A program made the translations under genes and the position numbers. DNA of 64,000 nucleotides, taken from NCBI GenBank assembly GCA_000182565.2, contig KQ257458.1; one strand, written 5' to 3'. Shown piece by piece: positions 2,272 to 62,240 of this stretch. The notes under the pieces are model-generated. The model saw nothing but the letters and a program-made list of their open reading frames with translations, did not search any database and was not told the origin of the DNA. The number at the start of each line of letters is the position of its first letter. Within the stretch, counting starts at the first letter, position 1. This DNA is from Spizellomyces punctatus DAOM BR117. Lineage: Eukaryota.

Positions 2272-2853
2272 TCCATATCTCGTAGGCAACACGTTTAGGC
2301 AACACGTTTTTTTGAATTCTTTCATCTAAGGTTGTCACTCCTTGAAATTTGTTGCGCTACCAACCAGCCAGTCGTTCTTTGTTCATGGCTTTGTGAGTGC
2401 GGAATAGGCTTGTCCATTGGCGCATGTATAAGAAGCTGCCACTGCTCGTGTGTAGGCGTTTTGAACAGCAATCACCGATCCTATGTTCGACTACGTAGAT
2501 GCTTGTGCTGTAAACTGTCGTTTCCGAAATGAAGACACTCCCTTTGCACCATGGGTTATCAATTGTGGCATTGGGCTGTGAATGGACAAGTGGTTGGATC
2601 GGTTCTTAGGCCAAATATTTATTCTGATATGTAGCCAGCTCTTGGTGGCTATTTTCAGCATGACATACTTTTGGGCGGACGACATTTTCATCATGATCGG
2701 GTCAGGTCCGCTTGTTGCTCAGGTCCAGGTCTTCCTGTAAAGATTGCTGTATTAAAAAGACGCACAATATAGCCATATAATCGCCAGAACAAACGAGATT
2801 CTGTGTACGGTATCTGTTCCATAATGGATAATAGCCGAGTTCCGGCCAATTCA

Positions 2854-3594
2854 TAGTGTGGAGGCGATTGAAAATGGCACTAGGACCCATTATTATCCGG
2901 ATTAATCCGGTTAATCATATCGCATAATCAGAACCCCCCTCTATCGCTCAGATTGGTGTGGCATGTATTGTAATGTTTTTTTTTAAACTGCGGTGAGGCG
3001 CATGCCAAAGGTCTATAAAAGGGGGGCCTTTTCCCTCTTTCCTCTTTACCCATCCTCGACTCGAAGCATCTGCGCAACGCTCATTGCGACCCACACAACC
3101 TCATTGCGACTCGGCCAACCATGAGAACGCCGATGTGGTGGTGTCGAGGACCTCGACCGCCCGACAGCAACCGTGATCAGAACCAGCGGCAACCAATCAG
3201 ATCCGATAACAAAACCTACTATTATACTGCCACATTAGTTGAGCTTGGTTGGTATGTATCGATGGCATTTCTTGCATTTCTTGTCATCGGGTCACCTCGC
3301 TGACATGCAGTTTTTTTTAGTCTCCAAGCCTTGTCACTGAAAATCCACCAGCTTGTGACGCTGCCCAGTCGATTCGCTCCTGGATGCAAGAGTCTGGCTT
3401 CAATGCCATCAAGAGTTCTGGATCAAGGCTTAGTAGGGACCATGTGTGGTGGTGGGCAGTTATCCGGTTAGAACAACCATTACGTATTGCATGTATAATT
3501 GCCTAGTAGTAGTTAGATAGCTTTTCCGAACCGGTTGTCGCCGGTTTATTCCCTGGTGTAGTAGCTAGTGCCAGTTTCTGTCACCTCTACACTA
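2854..3594 (+). mobile_element. Non-autonomous TIR element (MITE-like), copy 1, carrying a TATA-ORF-intron cassette
   Basis: Left end TAGTGTGGAGGCGATTGAAAATGGCACTAG and right end CTAGTGCCAGTTTCTGTCACCTCTACACTA form an imperfect ~30-bp inverted repeat. Colinear with 23918-24669 and 38552-39283, and the flanks are unrelated. No transposase ORF. Confidence 0.85.
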
Positions 3595-3863
3595 TAGATG
3601 TTTGATTAACTTGCAGAGACCACTAGCACTGGACGCATAGTATTTACGCACCAGCTGAATCTTATCTGCGGTACAATTTGATCTCATACTGTTGATACCA
3701 AGTCATTGGATGTATTCTGGAGAATGGGATACCACTCATCTGAGATCATGGTTGTTGAATGTTCTCGTTTGCTGCTTTCCCGTAATTGACACACCTTGTT
3801 CAAGGAGTGACAATCGAGAGCTAATTGAATTGATAAAAATGCGCGTTTGTTTATATTTCATCA

Positions 3864-3936
3864 GGGGAATTAGCTCAAATGGCAGAGCGCTCGCTTAGCA
3901 TGCGAGAGGCACGGGGATCGATACCCCGATTCTCCA
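3864..3936 (+). tRNA. tRNA-Ala(AGC), copy 2 (TGGCA variant)
   Basis: Same 73-nt sequence as copy 1 except T>C in the D-loop; T-run at ~3962. Confidence 0.97.
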
Positions 3937-4385: not shown

Positions 4386-6351
4386 TCAGATATTCTCGAC
4401 CGTTCCTAGACTTGTAACCACTGGCTGGACGGGTTGCGCCGTCGCTTGGTTGGAGGGGCCTTGTGCTTGAACGGGTGTTGACTGAGTGGGAGCGGCTTGA
4501 GTTGGTGTTGACTGAGCGGGAGCCGCTTGAGTGGGAGCCGCATGAGTGGGAGCCGCATGAGTGGGAGCCGCATGAGTGGGAGCTGCTTGGGTGGGAGCCG
4601 CTTGAGTGGGAGCCGCATGAGTGGGAGCCGCATGAGTGGGAGCCGCATGAGTGGGAGCTGCTTGGGTGGGAGCTGCTTGGGTGGGAGCGGCTTGAGTGGG
4701 AGCTGCTTGAGCGGGAGCCGCATGAGTGGCAGCCGCATGAGTGGGAGCGGCTTGGGTGGGAGCTGCTTGAGTGGGAGCCGCATGAGTGGGAGCGGGTTGC
4801 GCCGCTCGAACTGGTGCTGTTACTCCAGAAGGTCCGGGTTCAGCAGCAGGAGGTAACGGGACAGGTTCCGGAAGTTTTGACGGAGCAACTGGTTGTCCGA
4901 CAATTGGCTGGTCCCGATGCGCATCTTTCATCTCCTCCGCCATCAGATGATTTTGGTTTGACCTCGTTAACGATGACGCGGTTGAAGCTATAGAAGCGGT
5001 GCTGTTCATCGTGCCCGCAGCTGCCAGCGTCTTATAGGGAACAAATTGGGCCATGGCATTCCACCACGATTCTGACTCTGACATGCTGTTGGTTGAAAAC
5101 TTGTACACCTTTCGCTTATTTGTGAAAAGGCCGTGATTCTCTCTGATTTCAGTCAAGTGGAACTCTTCAGCCGTGACACCCCCGGCGCCCATGCCAAGCG
5201 GACCTAGTTCGCAGCTGCGAAGCCAAATGTGCCGTTTGGGTTTAATGTCCTCTTCGCCGTCCAGTCGTGGCCTTTCGGGAAATTCATGTAACCAACCACT
5301 CGCACTCACGCAGTACCACTTTTCCTTCCATTTCTTCATCACTTTGCTTTTCCTCAGCATTGGGCCTTCTTTAAGCAGTTGAACGAGGGGATCATTTCCG
5401 CCCGGATAATCCTCTGCAAACGCGAACGGAGAGGCTGCGTCCTGCAGATTCCTGTTTCGGTAGGCCTCCCATTCACGGTCTGGGTCCAGCGCATTGACAG
5501 CGTTCTGGAGAGATGTTGTTGCACCATGAGACGCCGCCGCAACGGAATCCAGAGACGTGTAAGCCAGTAAAGCAGATTTGAGGTTTTTGATCAGGTTCTT
5601 CTCCCAGACTCCAAATGTACGTTCGATTTCGGCAATATTGTCCGAGCGGGAACGGTACTTGTGAGAAGCGTAATAGAGATGCCGTTTCACAGCTGATCAT
5701 TGGGGGGAATGGAAATGAGTATTGCAAGGCTCGCGGAAATGTGAAAGAAAATTGTCACATACCCCAATTGGCCAACCAAGGATCGCCTGCATCCCATGGC
5801 GACATTTTCACCACCCCCTGACCAGCGGACAATGTCCGTTGCAAAGTTTTCAAAAGTTGCTTGAGTTTCAGCTCATCCTTCTCCTTGTCCTTCTTTCTGT
5901 GACGCTCCTCTTCCATCAGTTCAGTCATTTTCCTGTGTACTTCCTTATCCAACGACTTCAAAGCGGGCAACGTCTGTGAATGCAACACCTTGTGGACTGA
6001 GTCGTGTTCTGCCGAAAGTTGCGAACACGTTTCTCTAGAACATTTCATCAACTCCCCGATGCCCGGGCTGTTACCGAACGCCGCATCTCGCTCACGGGAA
6101 GGGTTGGATGTCCAGTGACGAAGAGTTTTCTGTTGCGATACGCTGAGGTTCTTCTCGAGGGCAGCTTGGTCTTCGAATTGCAAGATGAGAAGCCGTATAA
6201 GGGAAAGCCAACCTGCGCAACGGGTAAGGATAAGGTCGGATGGATTCGGCGGCAGTTGCCCCTCGCCAATGGAGGGAGACCGGTAGCACGTGGGAGAACG
6301 TGTCACGTCTGTGGACGATCCAGTCTTTGTCGCTGATTCGAGCGTTGCCAT
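4386..6351 (-). CDS. Slm1/Slm2-like coiled-coil (BAR-like) plus PH-domain protein with a C-terminal pentapeptide repeat
   Basis: Exons 6351-5763 and 5692-4386 join as DPWLANW-A-VKRHL. PH-like segment LLKEGPMLRKSKVMKKWKEKWYCVSASGWLHEF...ESESWWNAM. Confidence 0.8.
4480..4797 (-). repeat. Coding 15-bp minisatellite, about 20 units, encoding PT(H/Q)AA
   Basis: Tandem GAGTGGGAGCCGCAT / GAGTGGGAGCTGCTT-type units on the + strand. Confidence 0.95.
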
Positions 6352-23645: not shown

Positions 23646-23917
23646 ATATTGATTGCTGAGGATACAGTAAATACATCATTTTTAAATATACTCATCTAGA
23701 TCAGAAAGACTTGACCCGATGAGCTCACAGAAGCAAGAGCATCCCAAACAAAACTAATAATCAACGGCTGAAAATATCTGTGAAGCACTGCTCAGTGGAG
23801 AAGCGGCACTTAGCGTTGACATTGACTTTATCAACTAAGATGCGGGCAACCAGCCGTCCCGTTTGGTGGCATAGTACCCACGGAAACGAATGGCTCAGGA
23901 TTTCAAATGACATTTGA

Positions 23918-24669
23918 TAGTGTAGAGGTGACAGAAACTGGCCTAGCTACTACACCAGGGAATGAACCGGCGAGAACCGGTTCGGAAAAGCTAACTAACT
24001 ACTACTAGGCAATTATACACGCAATACGTAACGGTTCTAAACCGGATAATTGCCCACCACCACACGCGTTCCTACTGGGCCTTGATCTGGAACTCTTGAT
24101 CGACATTGAAGCCAGAGTCGTCGCAAGAGAGTTAATATCGTCAGGGAGACTCGCAAGCCGGAGGATGTTCAGTAACGAAGGCTTGGAGACTAGAACTGCC
24201 TGTCAGAAGATGACCAGATGATAAGAAATGATGCCATCGGTACATACCAACCAAGCTCAACAAATGTGGCAGCATAATAGTAGGTTTGTCAACAGATCCA
24301 ACTGGTTGCTGCTGGTTCTGGCCATTGTTGCTGTCGGGCGGACGAGGTCCTCGACACCACCACATCTGCATGCTCATGATTGACCGAGTCGCAATGAGGT
24401 TGCAATGTGGGTCACTATGAGGTTGCAATGTGGGTCGCGATGAGCGTTGGGCAGATGCTTGCGAGTCGAGGATGGGTAAAGAGGAAAGAGGGAAAAGGCC
24501 CCCCTTTTATAGACCTTTGGCATGCGCCTCACCGCAGTTTAAAAAAAAAGCATTACATGCATGCCACAGCGCTTTGAGCGATAGAGGGGGTTCTGATTAT
24601 TCGATATGATTAACCGGATTATCCGGATAATAATGGGTCCTAGTGCCATTTTCCATCACCTCCACACTA
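23918..24669 (-). mobile_element. Non-autonomous TIR element, copy 2 (inverted)
   Basis: Reverse-complement match to 2854-3594, including both TIRs, the TATA block, ATG at 24377 (MSMQMWWCRGPRPPD) and the GTATGT intron. Confidence 0.85.
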
Positions 24670-37469: not shown

Positions 37470-38551
37470 GTTGGGATTCTTCTAAGTTCTTTGTCTATGT
37501 GTCTAGCAGGTATATATATCGAGGAGTATTTTTCAGACGGGGGGAGCGAAAGGGAGGATGACATGCTCTCTTTAAATAACTCAGCTCCCCCCAATGTCAT
37601 CCATCGTCATTCCCTCAGCAAAATGAAAAGATTCTGTAGAAACCTCCTTTGTCCATTAGAAAACCCGCTTTTTGCTGCGTTGCTTATGAAACGCGCCTTT
37701 AACTCCAAATTGGTTTTTGACCTGAAACGCGGCGGACTTTGAACTTTTTGACAGATGCTGCGTTAACCGTTTGTTACAAACACCGAGAGCCTTTGGGATG
37801 GGTTTACTTTTGATATTCCTAGTGTTTGGAAGGGAAAAGAACGGGTTTTAGATCAGCGCACAAACTAGTTGGTTGATGCGATTGCGCAGTAAAGATGAAC
37901 TTTGGGGGTGTCTACCAAAGTTGAAAGGGTCCCCTTAAGGGTTTTTAACGGCCAGCTGAGAGATGAAGGACTAAAAATGCGGCAGATTTGTTTTAATGCA
38001 CCTGCTGACGGCGAAAGGCGGCTTTCAACCTGCAACCGGAATATGATCCCTTGCTGTCTTTTCCAATTGGAAAGCGACTGGTCGATGGCGGGTTCCTTGT
38101 CGCGGGCTCTTTCGATGGCTCTGCTTCTTCCAGAGGACCACGTTCTCGCTTGCAGGTCATTTGTCGGTTTACGACCATTCTTATACATTGTTTGCTTCAG
38201 CGACATGTGCCACGCAAAAGGATACATCGCTGGCCTGTAAGGTCCAGTTTATTGCAACCCATATGAAAGCCGTAATGGGCCGTGTGCGTGTGTGCACTTG
38301 TAATGAACCTCGCAAAACATGAACTGATTCCATCCCCCTTGTGGATAAAATACAAGGGAATCCAATTGGAAACGGTGAATAGCGCACGTCTGCCGTCGTC
38401 CAACTAGAGTCGCCCATCTGCATTTCCTCATAGCATAATGCCATAACACGATAAACGGAACGATATGCCTTTACAATGTCCTTGTTTTTTGTTTTATCCG
38501 TCGCCTTTCGCAAAGTCTAGCTGTCAACATGTCCAATACGGTCGAGTAACA

Positions 38552-39283
38552 TAGTGTGGAGGTGATTGAAAATGGCACTAAGACTCATTATTATCCGGAT
38601 AATCCGGTTAATCATATCGCATAATCAGCACCCCCTCTATTGCTCAGATTGGTGTGGCATGCATGTAATGTTTTTTTTTTTTTAAACTGCAGTGAGGCGC
38701 ATGCCGAAGGTCTATAAAAGGGGGGCCTTGCTCTCTCTCCCCTTCCTCACCAGTTCCTCGACTCTCAAACCATCTGCGCAACCCTCATCATGACTCTCAA
38801 GTCCAACCATGAGAATGCAGATGTGATGGTGCTGAGGACCTTGCCCTCCCAATGACTACAACCAACTGGAACCAGCGCAGCCTCGGAACCAACAAAGCTG
38901 CTATTATGCTGCCACATTAGTTGAGCTTGGTTGGTATGTACTGATTGCATCATTTCATTCTGTCATTCATCTCGCTGACATGCAGTTTTTTTATCCTAGT
39001 TTTTTTAGTCTCCAAGTCTTGTCACTGAACATCCTCTGGCTTGTGATGCTGCCCAGTCGATTCGCTCCTGGATGCAAGAGTCTGGCTTCAATGCCATCAA
39101 GAGTTCCAGATCAAGGCCTAGTAGGGACCGCGTGTGGTGGTGCGCAGTTATCCGGTTAGAACCAACTGTTATGTATTGCGTGTATAATTGCCTAGTAGTA
39201 GTTAGTTAGCTTTTCCGAACCGGTTGTCGCCGGTTTATTCCCTGGTGTAGTAGCTAGTGCCATTTTCTGTCACCTCTACACTG
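38552..39283 (+). mobile_element. Non-autonomous TIR element, copy 3 (ORF disabled)
   Basis: Colinear with copy 1 from TAGTGTGGAGG to CCTCTACACTG; the ORF at 38809 has TGA stops (MRMQM*WC*GPCPPN). Confidence 0.85.
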
Positions 39284-39544: not shown

Positions 39545-42522
39545 ATGGCTGGACGCAACAGAAAGGCCCAAACACCAAAGCGTCATCACAAGCGGAGGAC
39601 TGGATCGCCAAGACGGCAGCCTCATGTTGATGAGACGGTTGCCCTTATTCAATCACAGAGTCGTGATGCTGATACGCGCGTGAGATCTAGAAGAAGGAGC
39701 TTCATGGATGGTCCTGTTGGACGCAAGTTTTTGGAGGTACATTGCGTTGATGTTTGCGCTAGAAAGGGCATAGTCTCGGAAGACAAAGAAAAAGATTCCT
39801 GATCTACGGGTTTTCGTCTAGTATCGTCGAGTTTTCTTTTTTGCGGGTACCTTCCTTGGAGTGATATCTACCCTTTTGGCAGCTGCAACTTTTCGACCAG
39901 CACTGAAACCGATAATGCCCATGCATCGAATGTCAGAGTTATTTTCTGGTGCTTTGGGAGATGTGGATCTGTCCGAGTTCCTTCCCGAGATTCCCGGAAT
40001 TAGTTCATATGATCTCTTGGGAAACCTGACGTCGATGTTTCAGATTCCATCACTTTTTGGAGGCACAAAGGTGGGATCGCCTGCTACCGAGTATGAGCAG
40101 TTTCTGCCTGGAGCCCGACTAGCTGGAGAAGGGCTCGCCGCAAAGGTAGGATTCACTTAATCGGCTTGCTGTCACCTCGAATGTAGATACAGATGATTTT
40201 GCATTGGCAATTCAGCACCCTGTCATCCTTATCCCTGGCATTGTGTCCACAGGACTTGAAGTGTGGAATATCCCTGTCTCGCCTAAAACTGACAGTCCTC
40301 TCGACACAAAGAATACGGGAGAGGCACAAGATCAAGCTGGTGGCCGTGCCAAAAGAAAGCCCCAGGCGAAATCAAGTGAATCAAAATCTGCACCTGCCAA
40401 GCAAACCACGGATGAAGCGGCCGCTGAGGAGATCATTGCAATGAACCGCGCTTGTGGGCAGAAATATTTTCGAAAGAGAATATGGGGAACCACAGATCAT
40501 TTCAAAGCTCTACTGTTGAACAATGCGTGCTGGGTATATCATATGATGCTAGATGAGACGACAGGGCTAGATCCGCCAGGTGTCAAATTGAGGGCAGCCC
40601 AGGGTCTTGATGCGGCGGACTATCTATTTCCTGGGTATATATTTCTTTTAGCTTTCAGTTATCTCATTTAAGAATGTTTGCTTATCTGACACCAAACGTT
40701 AGGTACTGGGTCTGGGCTAAACTTATTTCCAACCTTGGAGCTCTCGGATACGACAACAACAATAGTACGCATTCATTCCCACAAGAGTAAGCTGCATTTA
40801 TGTCATCTCACAGTTGATTTGCATCCTGTAGTGCACCTGGCAGCCTACGACTGGCGGCTCAGCTTTGCTAACCTCGAAAAACGCGATCTCTACTTTACCA
40901 AACTGAAAAATACGATTGAAATCTCGTACTTGCATGCAGGCGGGGGACCCGATGCCCGATCTGTTGTCGTGACCCACTCCATGGGCTCAACTGTTTTTAT
41001 GTATTTTATGAGCTGGATCCGCAGTGATACCGGTGCCGGCGCTGGAGAACAGTGGATTCAAAAGTATTTGAAGGATTGGGTGAACATTGCGGGGACCTTG
41101 TTGGGTGTACCAAAGGTAAGACAATGATTGGAAGAGTGCATAGTAGTCAAAGGACTCAAGCTCATTTTGTAAGGCGCTGCCAACGATGTTGTCTGGTGTG
41201 TTCCCAAGCAGTCTCCGTGACCATTATAACATAACATGACATCATCCTGTTTCACAGGAGAAATGAAGGACACTGCAATGTTGAACGGGCTTCAAGCCTT
41301 TGTCCTCGAAAACTACCTCATGACGAGAGCGCAACGTGCAAGGCTGTTCCGCTCATGGTATACACTCTGCAACCAGAGCTCATATTTCCTGCATAAACTC
41401 ACTATTTAAACCATCAGGGGAGGGCTTGCATCTATGCTACCATACGGAGGTGAAACCATCTGGGGAAGAGTAGGCCAGCCCGCTCCAGACGAAGGCGAAA
41501 CTGAGAACCCTAGTTTTGGCGAATTTCTCACATTCTATCCCGCAAAGAAAACAGTGGAAGACTCCCAGAAAACTGGAAACAGGTCCACAAAAAAGACAAT
41601 GACCCTTTCAGCTGACACCGCAGAAGAGTTTATATTGGACGTCGCCAATCGTCCATATTGGGCGGCCAACCATAAGCGTTATGTCGCCACGTCCAAGCGC
41701 CAGTTGTTGGAGGCAAAAGACGATAATACGGCGTGGACCAATCCACTTTTAACTCCTCTGCCGCATTTCTCACCAGATTTCAAGATTTATTGTCTGTACG
41801 GAACGGGCCGTAAAAGCGAACGCAAATACTTTTACAACGTTGAACCCAAAACAAACAAAAGCAGCAAAAATGATGAAAGCAAAAAGAATGGCGATAACGG
41901 CAAATATACACCAGACAACCGTGATGACGAAGAAGAAGCGAACGAAGAACTGGACTTCCATGTTGACACAACATATAGCCAAGAAGAAGCGAATATCTAT
42001 AGTGGGGTCCAGCTGACGGATGGGTTAGTTTCCCAGGTTGCATGATCTTGTTCAATATAGTATTAACCGCATTGATGACAGCGATGGCACTGTTCCCCTC
42101 ATTTCTCTTGGAGTATGTATCCCGTCGCTGCATTGATATCATACGTTTCCTAACATTGTTTTGTTGAATGTGAATAGTACATGTGCGCCAAAGGGTGGAA
42201 GCACAAACGATACAACCCGGCTCAAATACCCGTCATTACACGAGAGTTTCGTGATAAGCCAGCCGGCGCTTTTAGTCCACGAGGTGGACCCGGGAGTGCA
42301 GATCATGTTGATAGTATGTTCCACCGGCTTTCGCTATTTGATTTTCTCAAAAGTAACTGAATCTCAATGATTTTTTATTGGTATGCAGTCCTTGGCAATT
42401 ATGATATGACGGAAGATATTCTGCGAATAGTTGCGGGGAAAGTTGAAGGATTAGAAGATTCTATATTTAGTGAGATAGAGGAGATAGCAAAAAGGGTAGA
42501 ACTGCCGAATGGACTCGATTAG
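39545..42522 (+). CDS. LRO1: Phospholipid:diacylglycerol acyltransferase (PDAT)
   Basis: HPVILIPGIVSTGLEVW, DPPGVKLRAAQGLDAADY, AAYDWRLS, THSMG, DGTVPL and SADHVD. Confidence 0.92.
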
Positions 42523-61849: not shown

Positions 61850-62240
61850 CTCTTCCTCTTCCCTCTTTTTCTTGATCCCTCGACTCTCGAAGCTTCTGCC
61901 CAACACTCAAGCAACTCTCAAGTCAATCATGAGAATGCCACTCTGGTGCCGAGGACCTCGCCCTCCCGACAACAATAACAATACACAAGGAGCACCTTGC
62001 AATTGCTACAACTACTATGCTGCAGGTATGCATTGCCTTTGTATTCTCCCACACTTATTACCCAGTCTAATTCCCGATTTACCTGAGTATCTGAAACATC
62101 CTCCGACTCAAGAACTTCGGAATCAGAGGCCTAGTAGGATTTCTCTCGTGGTGGTGGGCGCTAGTTACCCGGTTGACCAACCGTCATGTATTGCATATGT
62201 AATTGGGCCTAGTGGTTATTAGTTAGCTAGTCAGCTTTTC
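61850..62240 (+). mobile_element. Diverged copy 4 of the internal cassette of the TIR element
   Basis: Pyrimidine tract, CCTCGACTC, ATG 61929 MRMPLWCRGPRPPD, intron 62026-62065, and 3' blocks GGCCTAGTAGG, GTGGTGGTGGGC, AGTTACCCGGTT and GTATTGCATATGTAATTG; lacks the family TIRs. Confidence 0.7.

Follow-up and report, generated by a model that had tools for sequence, protein, structure and literature searches.

Why does a mobile-element-like sequence of 743 bp contain a spliced gene of its own, and what does this gene produce? The question is raised by a locus in a 64,000-nt stretch of the genome of Spizellomyces punctatus DAOM BR117 (assembly GCA_000182565.2, contig KQ257458.1); this whole stretch is referred to below as the window. 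The element lies on the plus strand (copy c1, 2852–3594) with 681 nt between its inverted repeats, and three further copies, designated c2, c3 and c4, are present in the window. An earlier note on the locus had presented it as more than an empty miniature inverted-repeat transposable element (MITE), namely as a carrier of an intron-containing mini-gene with a conserved WCRGPRPPD peptide, and had not recognised the family. The analysis indicated that a spliced open reading frame (ORF) transcript indeed arises within the element, that the element very probably belongs to the ghost Spu-1 elements known from this fungus, and that its interior is likely to serve as its own RNA polymerase II (Pol II) cassette for a guide RNA (omegaRNA) of the Fanzor1 nuclease SpuFz1.

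Splicing and coding constraint of the mini-gene

Contigs of four public runs (X1, X13, X14 and X16) were placed on positions 2700–3800. X13 is a soil metatranscriptome and X16 is root RNA-seq; the RNA label of X14 is a guess, and the kind of X1 is not on record. The X13, X14 and X16 runs come from three studies. Contigs fix neither RNA ends nor transcript starts, and their depth cannot be used to rank the parts of the element. In all three RNA or RNA-like runs (X13, X14 and X16), contigs join position 3251 to position 3321. The 69-nt GT..AG segment is skipped exactly in one contig of X13 and in one contig of X16, the latter with 99 nt on the shorter side, and the same junction with 11–12 mismatched letters at the start of exon 2 is found in X13 and X14. 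The X16 run contributes here a single 276-nt contig composed of 3074–3250 and 3320–3418. No contig of X13, X14 or X16 lies on the intron, while the contigs of X1 do cover it. The mini-gene is real at the RNA level, and the predicted intron is confirmed to the base. The donor, branch and acceptor letters, as well as the other landmarks read in the earlier note, lie where it had placed them (Table 1). Its claim that the intron occupies the same place in all copies and is followed by TCT holds for c1–c3; in c4, the donor is homologous, and the acceptor is not fixed.

The RNA contigs also cover the pyrimidine-rich leader, and their 5' limits are 3064 in X13, 3074 in X16 and 3096 in X14, where the contig continues into a leader variant of the c2 type. 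On 2852–3063, X13 and X14 have no contigs, a gap in cover from which no transcript start can be deduced; X16 contributes one contig of low depth on 2852–2950, with 147 nt of flank. The X14 contigs tile 3331–3594. In X1, 281 contigs lie on the element, including the intron and both ends, and none lie on the flanks, which points to a high-copy repeat in that organism.

The spliced ORF of c1 comprises 93 codons. The initiator ATG has A at position -3 in c1, c2 and c4, which is a good context. The sequence W-C-R-G-P-R-P-P-D is invariant in all six aligned sequences (c1, c2, c4 and the database proteins P0001, P0002 and P0003). In c3 the motif is interrupted by two stop codons, the changes including CGA to TGA and CTCG to CTTG, so that it is intact in six of the seven sequences known. 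The variable sites within the motif are 3144, 3156 and 3159 among the window copies, which agrees with the silent-only differences reported earlier for copies 1, 2 and 4, and 3144 and 3162 among the reads. All four distinct sites in these 27 nt are third positions, and all are silent (P = 0.007, nine third positions). Motif codons of c1 and c2 are 97% identical. When c1 is compared with c4, 24 of the 27 motif nucleotides are identical versus 48% (gaps counted) in the leader and the remaining exon 1; the binomial probability of at most three motif differences is 1.1e-5.

Outside the motif, the picture is different. Read variants of exon 1 located before it (3126, 3128 and 3131) and after it (3187, 3188, 3199 and 3226) all change the amino acid. 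The reading frames shift downstream, as had been noticed earlier: a 1-nt deletion makes exon 1 of c2 130 nt long versus 131 nt in c1, and several frames are used in exon 2, one common to c1, c3 and the first part of P0002, another in P0001, and yet another in c2 and P0003. Judging from these comparisons, the first 15 codons are constrained at the codon level and the remaining ORF is not, which is in line with the selection on a short N-terminal peptide suggested in the earlier note.

An RNA hairpin was considered as the cause of motif conservation and rejected. The sequence GTCGAGG-A-CCTCGAC lies within the R-G-P-R codons, and its outer pair is lost in c2 and c4; the third-position pattern and the lack of a compensating change in the hairpin favour a coding constraint. 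Copies of the 7-mer CCTCGAC are found at 3054 and 3151, with the complement GTCGAGG at 3143, so that these letters could let the leader pair with the ORF start; compensating changes are absent in c2 and c4.

A search among 1.84 billion representative proteins revealed only three relatives of exon 1: P0001 (105 amino acids, 98% identical to exon 1), P0002 (80 amino acids, 91%) and P0003 (69%). P0001 and P0002 are named by the source as uncharacterised proteins of S. punctatus DAOM BR117. A protein search by similar length gave no further annotated relatives, and no mention of the locus tags SPPG_08830 and SPPG_09412 was found in the literature. In the same 1.84 billion representatives, no long protein with the exon 1 N-terminus was detected, and the PDB sequence set, which should contain SpuFz1, the structure of which is reported by Saito et al., gave no match to exon 1 with an E of up to 10. 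The mini-gene did not prove to be the 5' remnant of a known transposase gene, a possibility raised in the earlier note. Several weak hits were taken as chance: the PDB matches of P0001 with E of 0.03 and 0.3, and the only Pfam match of P0001–P0003 (NinE, E 0.037, below the cut-off). A scan of metagenomes with the peptide pattern matched 598 stretches, none of which was confirmed by tblastn.

Element architecture and the ghost Spu-1 family

The full copies c1–c3 represent an element of ~745 bp, with a total span of 733–754 bp. Their ends are terminal inverted repeats of the length of ~30 bp given earlier. A search for the left repeat with up to 3 mismatches found three sites in the window, one in each full copy, versus none in 100 shuffles. 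The dinucleotide CA precedes TAGTG in all three full copies and also in one X16 contig with a different flank; together with the following TA, the junction reads CATA, which is the target-adjacent motif (TAM) of SpuFz1. The junction dinucleotides are TA...TA in c1 and c2 and TA...TG in c3.

Conservation among the copies is modular. Best kept are the TATA segment, motif codons, repeats, left subterminal region and the scaffold at the right end; variation is greatest in the leader, in the interior of the intron and in exon 2. The segment 3004–3030 around the TATA box is identical between c1 and c2 at 27 of 27 positions and is 93% identical between c1 and c3. The TAG-rich block, which is 74% identical between c1 and c4, is the second-best conserved block of that pair. 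The coordinates of all features are collected in Table 1.

Table 1. Positions in the window of the four copies and of the features of copy c1
Feature	Position	Strand	Remarks
Copy c1	2852–3594	+	Reference copy (blastn of the element against the window)
Copy c2	24671–23918	-	Full element; 84.3% identity to c1 (blastn); motif intact; 1-nt deletion in exon 1; 58-nt intron
Copy c3	38550–39282	+	Full element; 82.7% identity to c1 (blastn); dead ORF, two stops inside the motif
Copy c4	about 61850–62235	+	Diverged partial copy; three short blastn matches, 75–78%, at 61855–62228
CATA, left junction	2852–2855	+	CA before the repeat; TA is the first two repeat bases or a putative TA target duplication
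Left 30-nt inverted repeat (LE)	2854–2883	+	Complementary in c1 to the right repeat at 25 of 30 positions
Left subterminal region	2884–3003	+	89–92% identity between copies; absent from c4
TATAAAA, putative Pol II core promoter	3014–3020	+	Promoter function predicted
Leader, pyrimidine-rich (CT-rich), 5'	3064–3120	+	RNA contig cover
Exon 1	3121–3251	+	ATG 3121; codons 7–15 (3139–3165) encode WCRGPRPPD
Intron, spliceosomal, 69 nt	3252–3320	+	GTATGT donor 3252; CTGAC 3300; TAG acceptor ending at 3320
Exon 2 frame of c1	3321–3471	+	Stop TAG 3469–3471; identity 72% c1–c2, 92% c1–c3
TAG/TAGT-rich block before the scaffold	3472–3519	+	88% identity among c1–c3; putative 3'-end or processing signal
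Predicted omegaRNA scaffold, 75 nt	3520–3594	+	93–97% identity among copies; includes the right repeat
Predicted stem 1	3528–3535/3540–3547	+	AACCGG-6 nt-CCGGTT hairpin at 3529–3546
Predicted stem 2, after the linker	3555–3574/3578–3593	+	3-nt bulge 3565–3567
Right inverted repeat	3565–3594	+	Part of the scaffold
Predicted guide, 15 nt of flanking DNA	3595–3609	+	Based on the 14–15-nt variable extension in PMC10432273; flanks differ between copies

Two short sequences recur near both ends of the element: ATCCGG at 2895, 2905 and 3462, and CCGGTT at 2907, 3464, 3531 and 3541. They could be putative subterminal binding sites for a transposase. Copy c4 has a diverged version (CCCGGTT) of the CCGGTT site near 3464.

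In S. punctatus, 42 loci carry the Fanzor1 gene SpuFz1 in a SPu-1 element of ~2.1 kb, and 134 ghost Spu-1 elements lack the Fanzor gene (Saito et al. 2023, PMC10432273). As described in that paper, the ghosts are bounded by inverted repeats of 30 nt, the left one preceded by a conserved CA; their interior of 'around 550 nt' is conserved, and the right end comprises a region of 75 nt. The latter is the omegaRNA scaffold, which comprises two stems plus a linker, the ghost versions having a 3-nt bulge in stem 2. The guide corresponds to 14–15 nt of the flank, the native RNA is 88–90 nt long, and 5'-CATA-3' serves as the TAM; editing by SpuFz1 was supported with four ghost scaffolds, and the legend of the ghost-locus alignment gives the repeats and omegaRNA regions as strongly conserved (PMC10432273). 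SPu-1 itself has 33-bp repeats and putative TA duplications (Bao & Jurka 2013, PMC3627910). The 74–76-nt ghost scaffolds were re-used in PMC13434818, where the passages on ghosts deal with scaffolds only.

The species, the 30-nt repeats, the CA/CATA junction, the absence of a Fanzor ORF and the conserved 75-nt right end match this definition, and the element can therefore be placed with high confidence in the ghost Spu-1 family, as judged by the published description and not by sequence alignment. Scaffold or repeat sequence strings were not found in the main texts searched. The family that went unrecognised in the earlier note has thus been published before; its spliced mini-gene and the conserved peptide are undescribed so far as our literature searches reach. 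The interior mini-gene (TATA box, leader, ATG, intron and peptide) was not found in the main texts of PMC10432273 or PMC13434818, the former making no mention of introns, peptides or tRNA, and their supplements may annotate it.

The right end of the element folds as expected of such a scaffold, with a predicted energy of -24.8 kcal/mol, a z-score of -3.1 and 23 pairs. The TAG-rich 3' block with a hairpin described earlier is indeed present; the hairpin, however, is stem 1 of the predicted scaffold, which the earlier note had missed. One X14 contig of 88 nt consists of 3520–3594 and 13 letters of a different flank; its length compares with the published RNA of 88–90 nt (PMC10432273), with the reservation that contig ends are not RNA ends. 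Contigs of X1 and X13 match the element from exactly 3520 onward and differ upstream, a pattern that fits the one expected of Fanzor-bearing loci. A second site in the window with CATA and the guide (up to 3 mismatches) was not found. A 21-nt scaffold pattern was also searched in metagenomes, and the five loci obtained (L001–L005), each matching over only 21–24 nt, were attributed to chance. Rfam contains no family matching 2700–3800 at E up to 1, and among the 19 of the 28 listed window ORFs that were scanned (at least 180 amino acids), none is TnpB-like.

Readings of the interior

We propose that this locus is a ghost Spu-1 element, the interior of which is its own Pol II cassette expressing the omegaRNA, and we consider this reading probable. 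The interior is read as an expression cassette because of the modular conservation of the TATA segment, motif codons, repeats and scaffold. The element would be a non-autonomous relative of SPu-1, the carrier of the SpuFz1 gene. At a canonical locus, the omegaRNA would normally be located within the Fanzor transcript, downstream of its stop codon. In the ghost, the mini-gene (TATA box, CT-rich leader, ATG, 69-nt intron and TAG-rich block) would replace the missing Fanzor gene and would drive transcription toward, and probably through, the scaffold, and the omegaRNA would come from the 3' part of a spliced, mRNA-like transcript. For this, the TATA box is presumed to act as the promoter, and the mini-gene and the omegaRNA to be parts of one primary transcript. 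SpuFz1 supplied from another locus would bind the RNA of 3520–3609 and would then cut CATA followed by the guide, in other words, the insertion site of this very element in its unoccupied state; the logic would be that of TnpB-like homing or retention. Among the products suggested in the earlier note, which also included a stalling or regulatory peptide and a toxin or antidote, 'regulatory RNA' comes nearest, since the documented product of the family is the omegaRNA guide for SpuFz1 (PMC10432273).

Several points weigh against this proposal. The only contig that crosses 3520 from the mini-gene side belongs to X14; it covers 3480–3549 and extends 30 nt beyond 3520, one short of what was counted as bridging, and the single primary transcript is thus something we infer. 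The RNA label of this run is itself a guess, and contigs cannot show RNA ends. None of the 23 pairs of the scaffold is supported by covariation. The element was compared with the ghost loci, SPu-1 and the SpuFz1 omegaRNA by description and not by sequence, and its interior is 681 nt long versus the published 'around 550 nt' (PMC10432273). In addition, the role of a carrier alone leaves the conservation of a specific peptide unexplained, and the peptide statistics come from four DNA copies, three proteins and one table of read variants.

The conserved peptide might have a cis-acting, translation-dependent role on its own transcript, which is a guess. More broadly, ghosts could be miniature genes, each with a spliced Pol II transcript, a selected peptide of ~15 residues and a 3' Fanzor guide RNA, perhaps placed at a fixed distance of ~270 nt upstream of tRNA genes, as are two of the three full copies here; we put this forward as speculation and consider it rather doubtful. 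Under such a scheme, the peptide M-x4-W-W-C-R-G-P-R-P-P-D would be a functional part of the Fanzor/ghost system, and it might couple translation to omegaRNA release or modulate either Fanzor or the transposase. According to the Discussion of PMC10432273, it is not known what Fanzor and the more than 100 ghost loci without a protein do biologically in S. punctatus. If the ghost interior is a TATA-driven, spliced mini-gene with a leader peptide under selection, the expression of ghost guide RNAs in a eukaryote finds a concrete explanation, their regulation becomes open to mutation of the promoter, intron and peptide, and the system gains a further candidate component. In that event, eukaryotic mRNA signals would clearly have been fitted onto a guide-RNA module of the prokaryotic type.

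The micropeptide may also be the main selected product, with the N-terminal 15 residues acting alone. This is compatible with the omegaRNA role, and we regard it as a possible, not a probable, explanation. Consecutive prolines slow ribosomes, with a dependence on eIF5A/EF-P, and at R-P-P-D the peptide might pause the ribosome or serve as a regulatory leader in cis; an action in trans, for example on Fanzor or the transposase, is the other option. The invariance of the motif in six of seven sequences and the exclusively silent differences, even versus the diverged c4, speak for it, as does the fact that c4 keeps the ATG, motif and donor despite the loss of the repeats, TATA box and scaffold. 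The good ATG context and a spliced RNA abundant enough to assemble in soil and root metatranscriptomes point in the same direction. However, frameshifts are tolerated from about codon 30, so that at most an N-terminus of ~15–30 residues matters, and searches of PDB, Pfam and protein databases found no family, fold or homologue. Moreover, c3 retains the repeats and the scaffold (93–97%) with a dead ORF, which indicates that copies can persist without the ORF.

Copy c4 is also important for another explanation, according to which the interior derives from a host gene as a fragment, either captured or inherited, that is functionless now, with its conservation due to recent spread and its transcription and splicing leftovers. 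The alignment of this copy to c1 is confined to the stretch between about 3027, in the leader, and about 3527, and c4 keeps the leader, the ATG (at 61929), the motif, the donor and the 3' block; no TATA box, left subterminal region or scaffold is present in the alignment. No flanking inverted repeat of c4 was found, only weak pairs of 70–93%. Holding the mini-gene part alone, c4 could be the donor gene or its relative, and the drift of exon 2 frames and the mere designation of the interior as a 'conserved region' in PMC10432273 would also suit a fragment of this kind. On the other hand, no longer ORF continues from c4, and the full copies are only 83–84% identical, so the family is not very young. 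Recent spread also does not account for the strongly modular conservation or for silent-only motif changes across a background divergence of about 50%. In X1, a c4-like variant is joined to a c1-like 3' part (with a loose end at 3458), and the likelier identity of c4 is for this reason that of a decayed copy from a diverged subfamily, rather than a single-copy host donor gene. Taken together, we consider an origin from a functionless host fragment unlikely.

It is very unlikely that the element belongs to an unrelated TA-targeting MITE family of S. punctatus, in which the 3' hairpins would be transposase-binding or terminator structures. The comparison with the published ghost loci by description only and the discrepancy between 681 nt and about 550 nt leave some room for it. 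Nevertheless, seven independent features coincide with those of the ghosts, namely the species, repeats of 30 nt, CA/CATA at the left junction, the conservation of the last 75 nt, a fold of two stems that includes the 3-nt bulge, the 88-nt RNA contig with a 13-nt variable tail, and the contigs common from exactly 3520 and differing upstream.

Differences between the full copies can also be noted. Exon 1 of c3 is 66–73% identical to that of c1, and exon 2 is 92% identical, while c2 shows the opposite pattern. This contrast suggests mosaic subfamilies or recombination between copies.

Neighbouring genes and comparison with known systems

The right end of c1 is located 269 nt upstream of a tRNA-Ala(AGC) gene (spacer interval 3594–3864), and that of c2 is located 271 nt upstream of another one (spacer interval 23646–23918). 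Both copies are oriented as their own tRNA genes; c3 is not near a tRNA gene. The spacers between element and tRNA gene in c1 and c2 are unrelated (score 8.5 versus -2.3 +/- 5.9 for shuffles), which indicates independent insertions at the same distance. The chance of two of three random placements falling within +/-10 nt of one distance and in the right orientation is about 3e-6, a figure obtained by hand arithmetic, post hoc and from two cases. The right end of c3 is about 263 nt upstream of an ATG at 39545, a possible gene start, a spacing similar to that of the tRNA cases.

Six dispersed, near-identical tRNA-Ala(AGC) genes with unrelated flanks are present on both strands within 21.5 kb (2198–23646), and these six tRNAs are the only Rfam matches over the whole window. 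Inside a minus-strand ORF (4386–5696), the stretch 4405–4853 is a tandem array of about 20 or more units with a period of 15 nt, which probably encodes a proline-rich pentapeptide repeat. PH and BAR-like domains were recognised in the product of this ORF, together with a weak match of the extensin-like kind.

Among known systems, the ghost Spu-1 elements are the closest to the element studied here. The two share the species, the 30-nt repeats, the CA, the lack of a Fanzor ORF, a conserved interior, the strongly conserved last 75 nt with two stems, a linker and the bulge in stem 2, a guide (predicted here) that comes from flanking DNA, and many copies; of the published features, only the stated interior length (about 550 nt versus 681 nt here) contradicts (PMC10432273). 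Canonical SPu-1 with SpuFz1 has similar repeats of ~30–33 bp, a putative TA duplication, CA/CATA at the left and the omegaRNA at the right (PMC3627910, PMC10432273). It differs in that its ~2.1 kb contain one intron-less Fanzor ORF of 633–638 amino acids, and the ghost repeats differ from those of the Fanzor loci at 7 positions (PMC10432273). Instead of this ORF, the present element has the 93-codon, intron-containing mini-gene without similarity to any PDB chain. No TnpB-like Fanzor1 protein of ~630 amino acids was found in the element, either with Pfam (none above the cut-off) or in PDB (none better than E 0.03).

The bacterial TnpB/IS200-IS605 homing system has TnpB-less derivatives that bear an omegaRNA. 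The element resembles this system in the right-end guide RNA reading into the flank, in the TAM at the left junction and in the nuclease acting in trans (PMC10432273). It differs from it in having a Pol II-type promoter, a spliceosomal intron and a translated-looking leader ORF, as well as terminal inverted repeats with TA, whereas IS200-IS605 has hairpin ends and makes no duplication. Fungal MITEs of the Tc1/mariner type, such as mimp of Fusarium, are small, have terminal inverted repeats and TA junctions, and are mobilised in trans. The small size, the terminal inverted repeats, the TA at both junctions and, presumably, mobilisation in trans are common to them and to the element. MITEs, however, are by definition without a gene, and this element has a transcribed, spliced ORF together with a predicted guide RNA scaffold.

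Finally, conserved regulatory nascent peptides are known, for example the fungal arginine attenuator peptide, and polyproline is a pause motif. A short conserved peptide, the proline-rich R-P-P-D and an apparently unconstrained remaining ORF are features that the mini-gene seems to share with such peptides. Unlike peptides of the arginine attenuator type, the conserved segment here is the N-terminus of the main ORF rather than an upstream ORF, and the known RNA cargo is a guide RNA.

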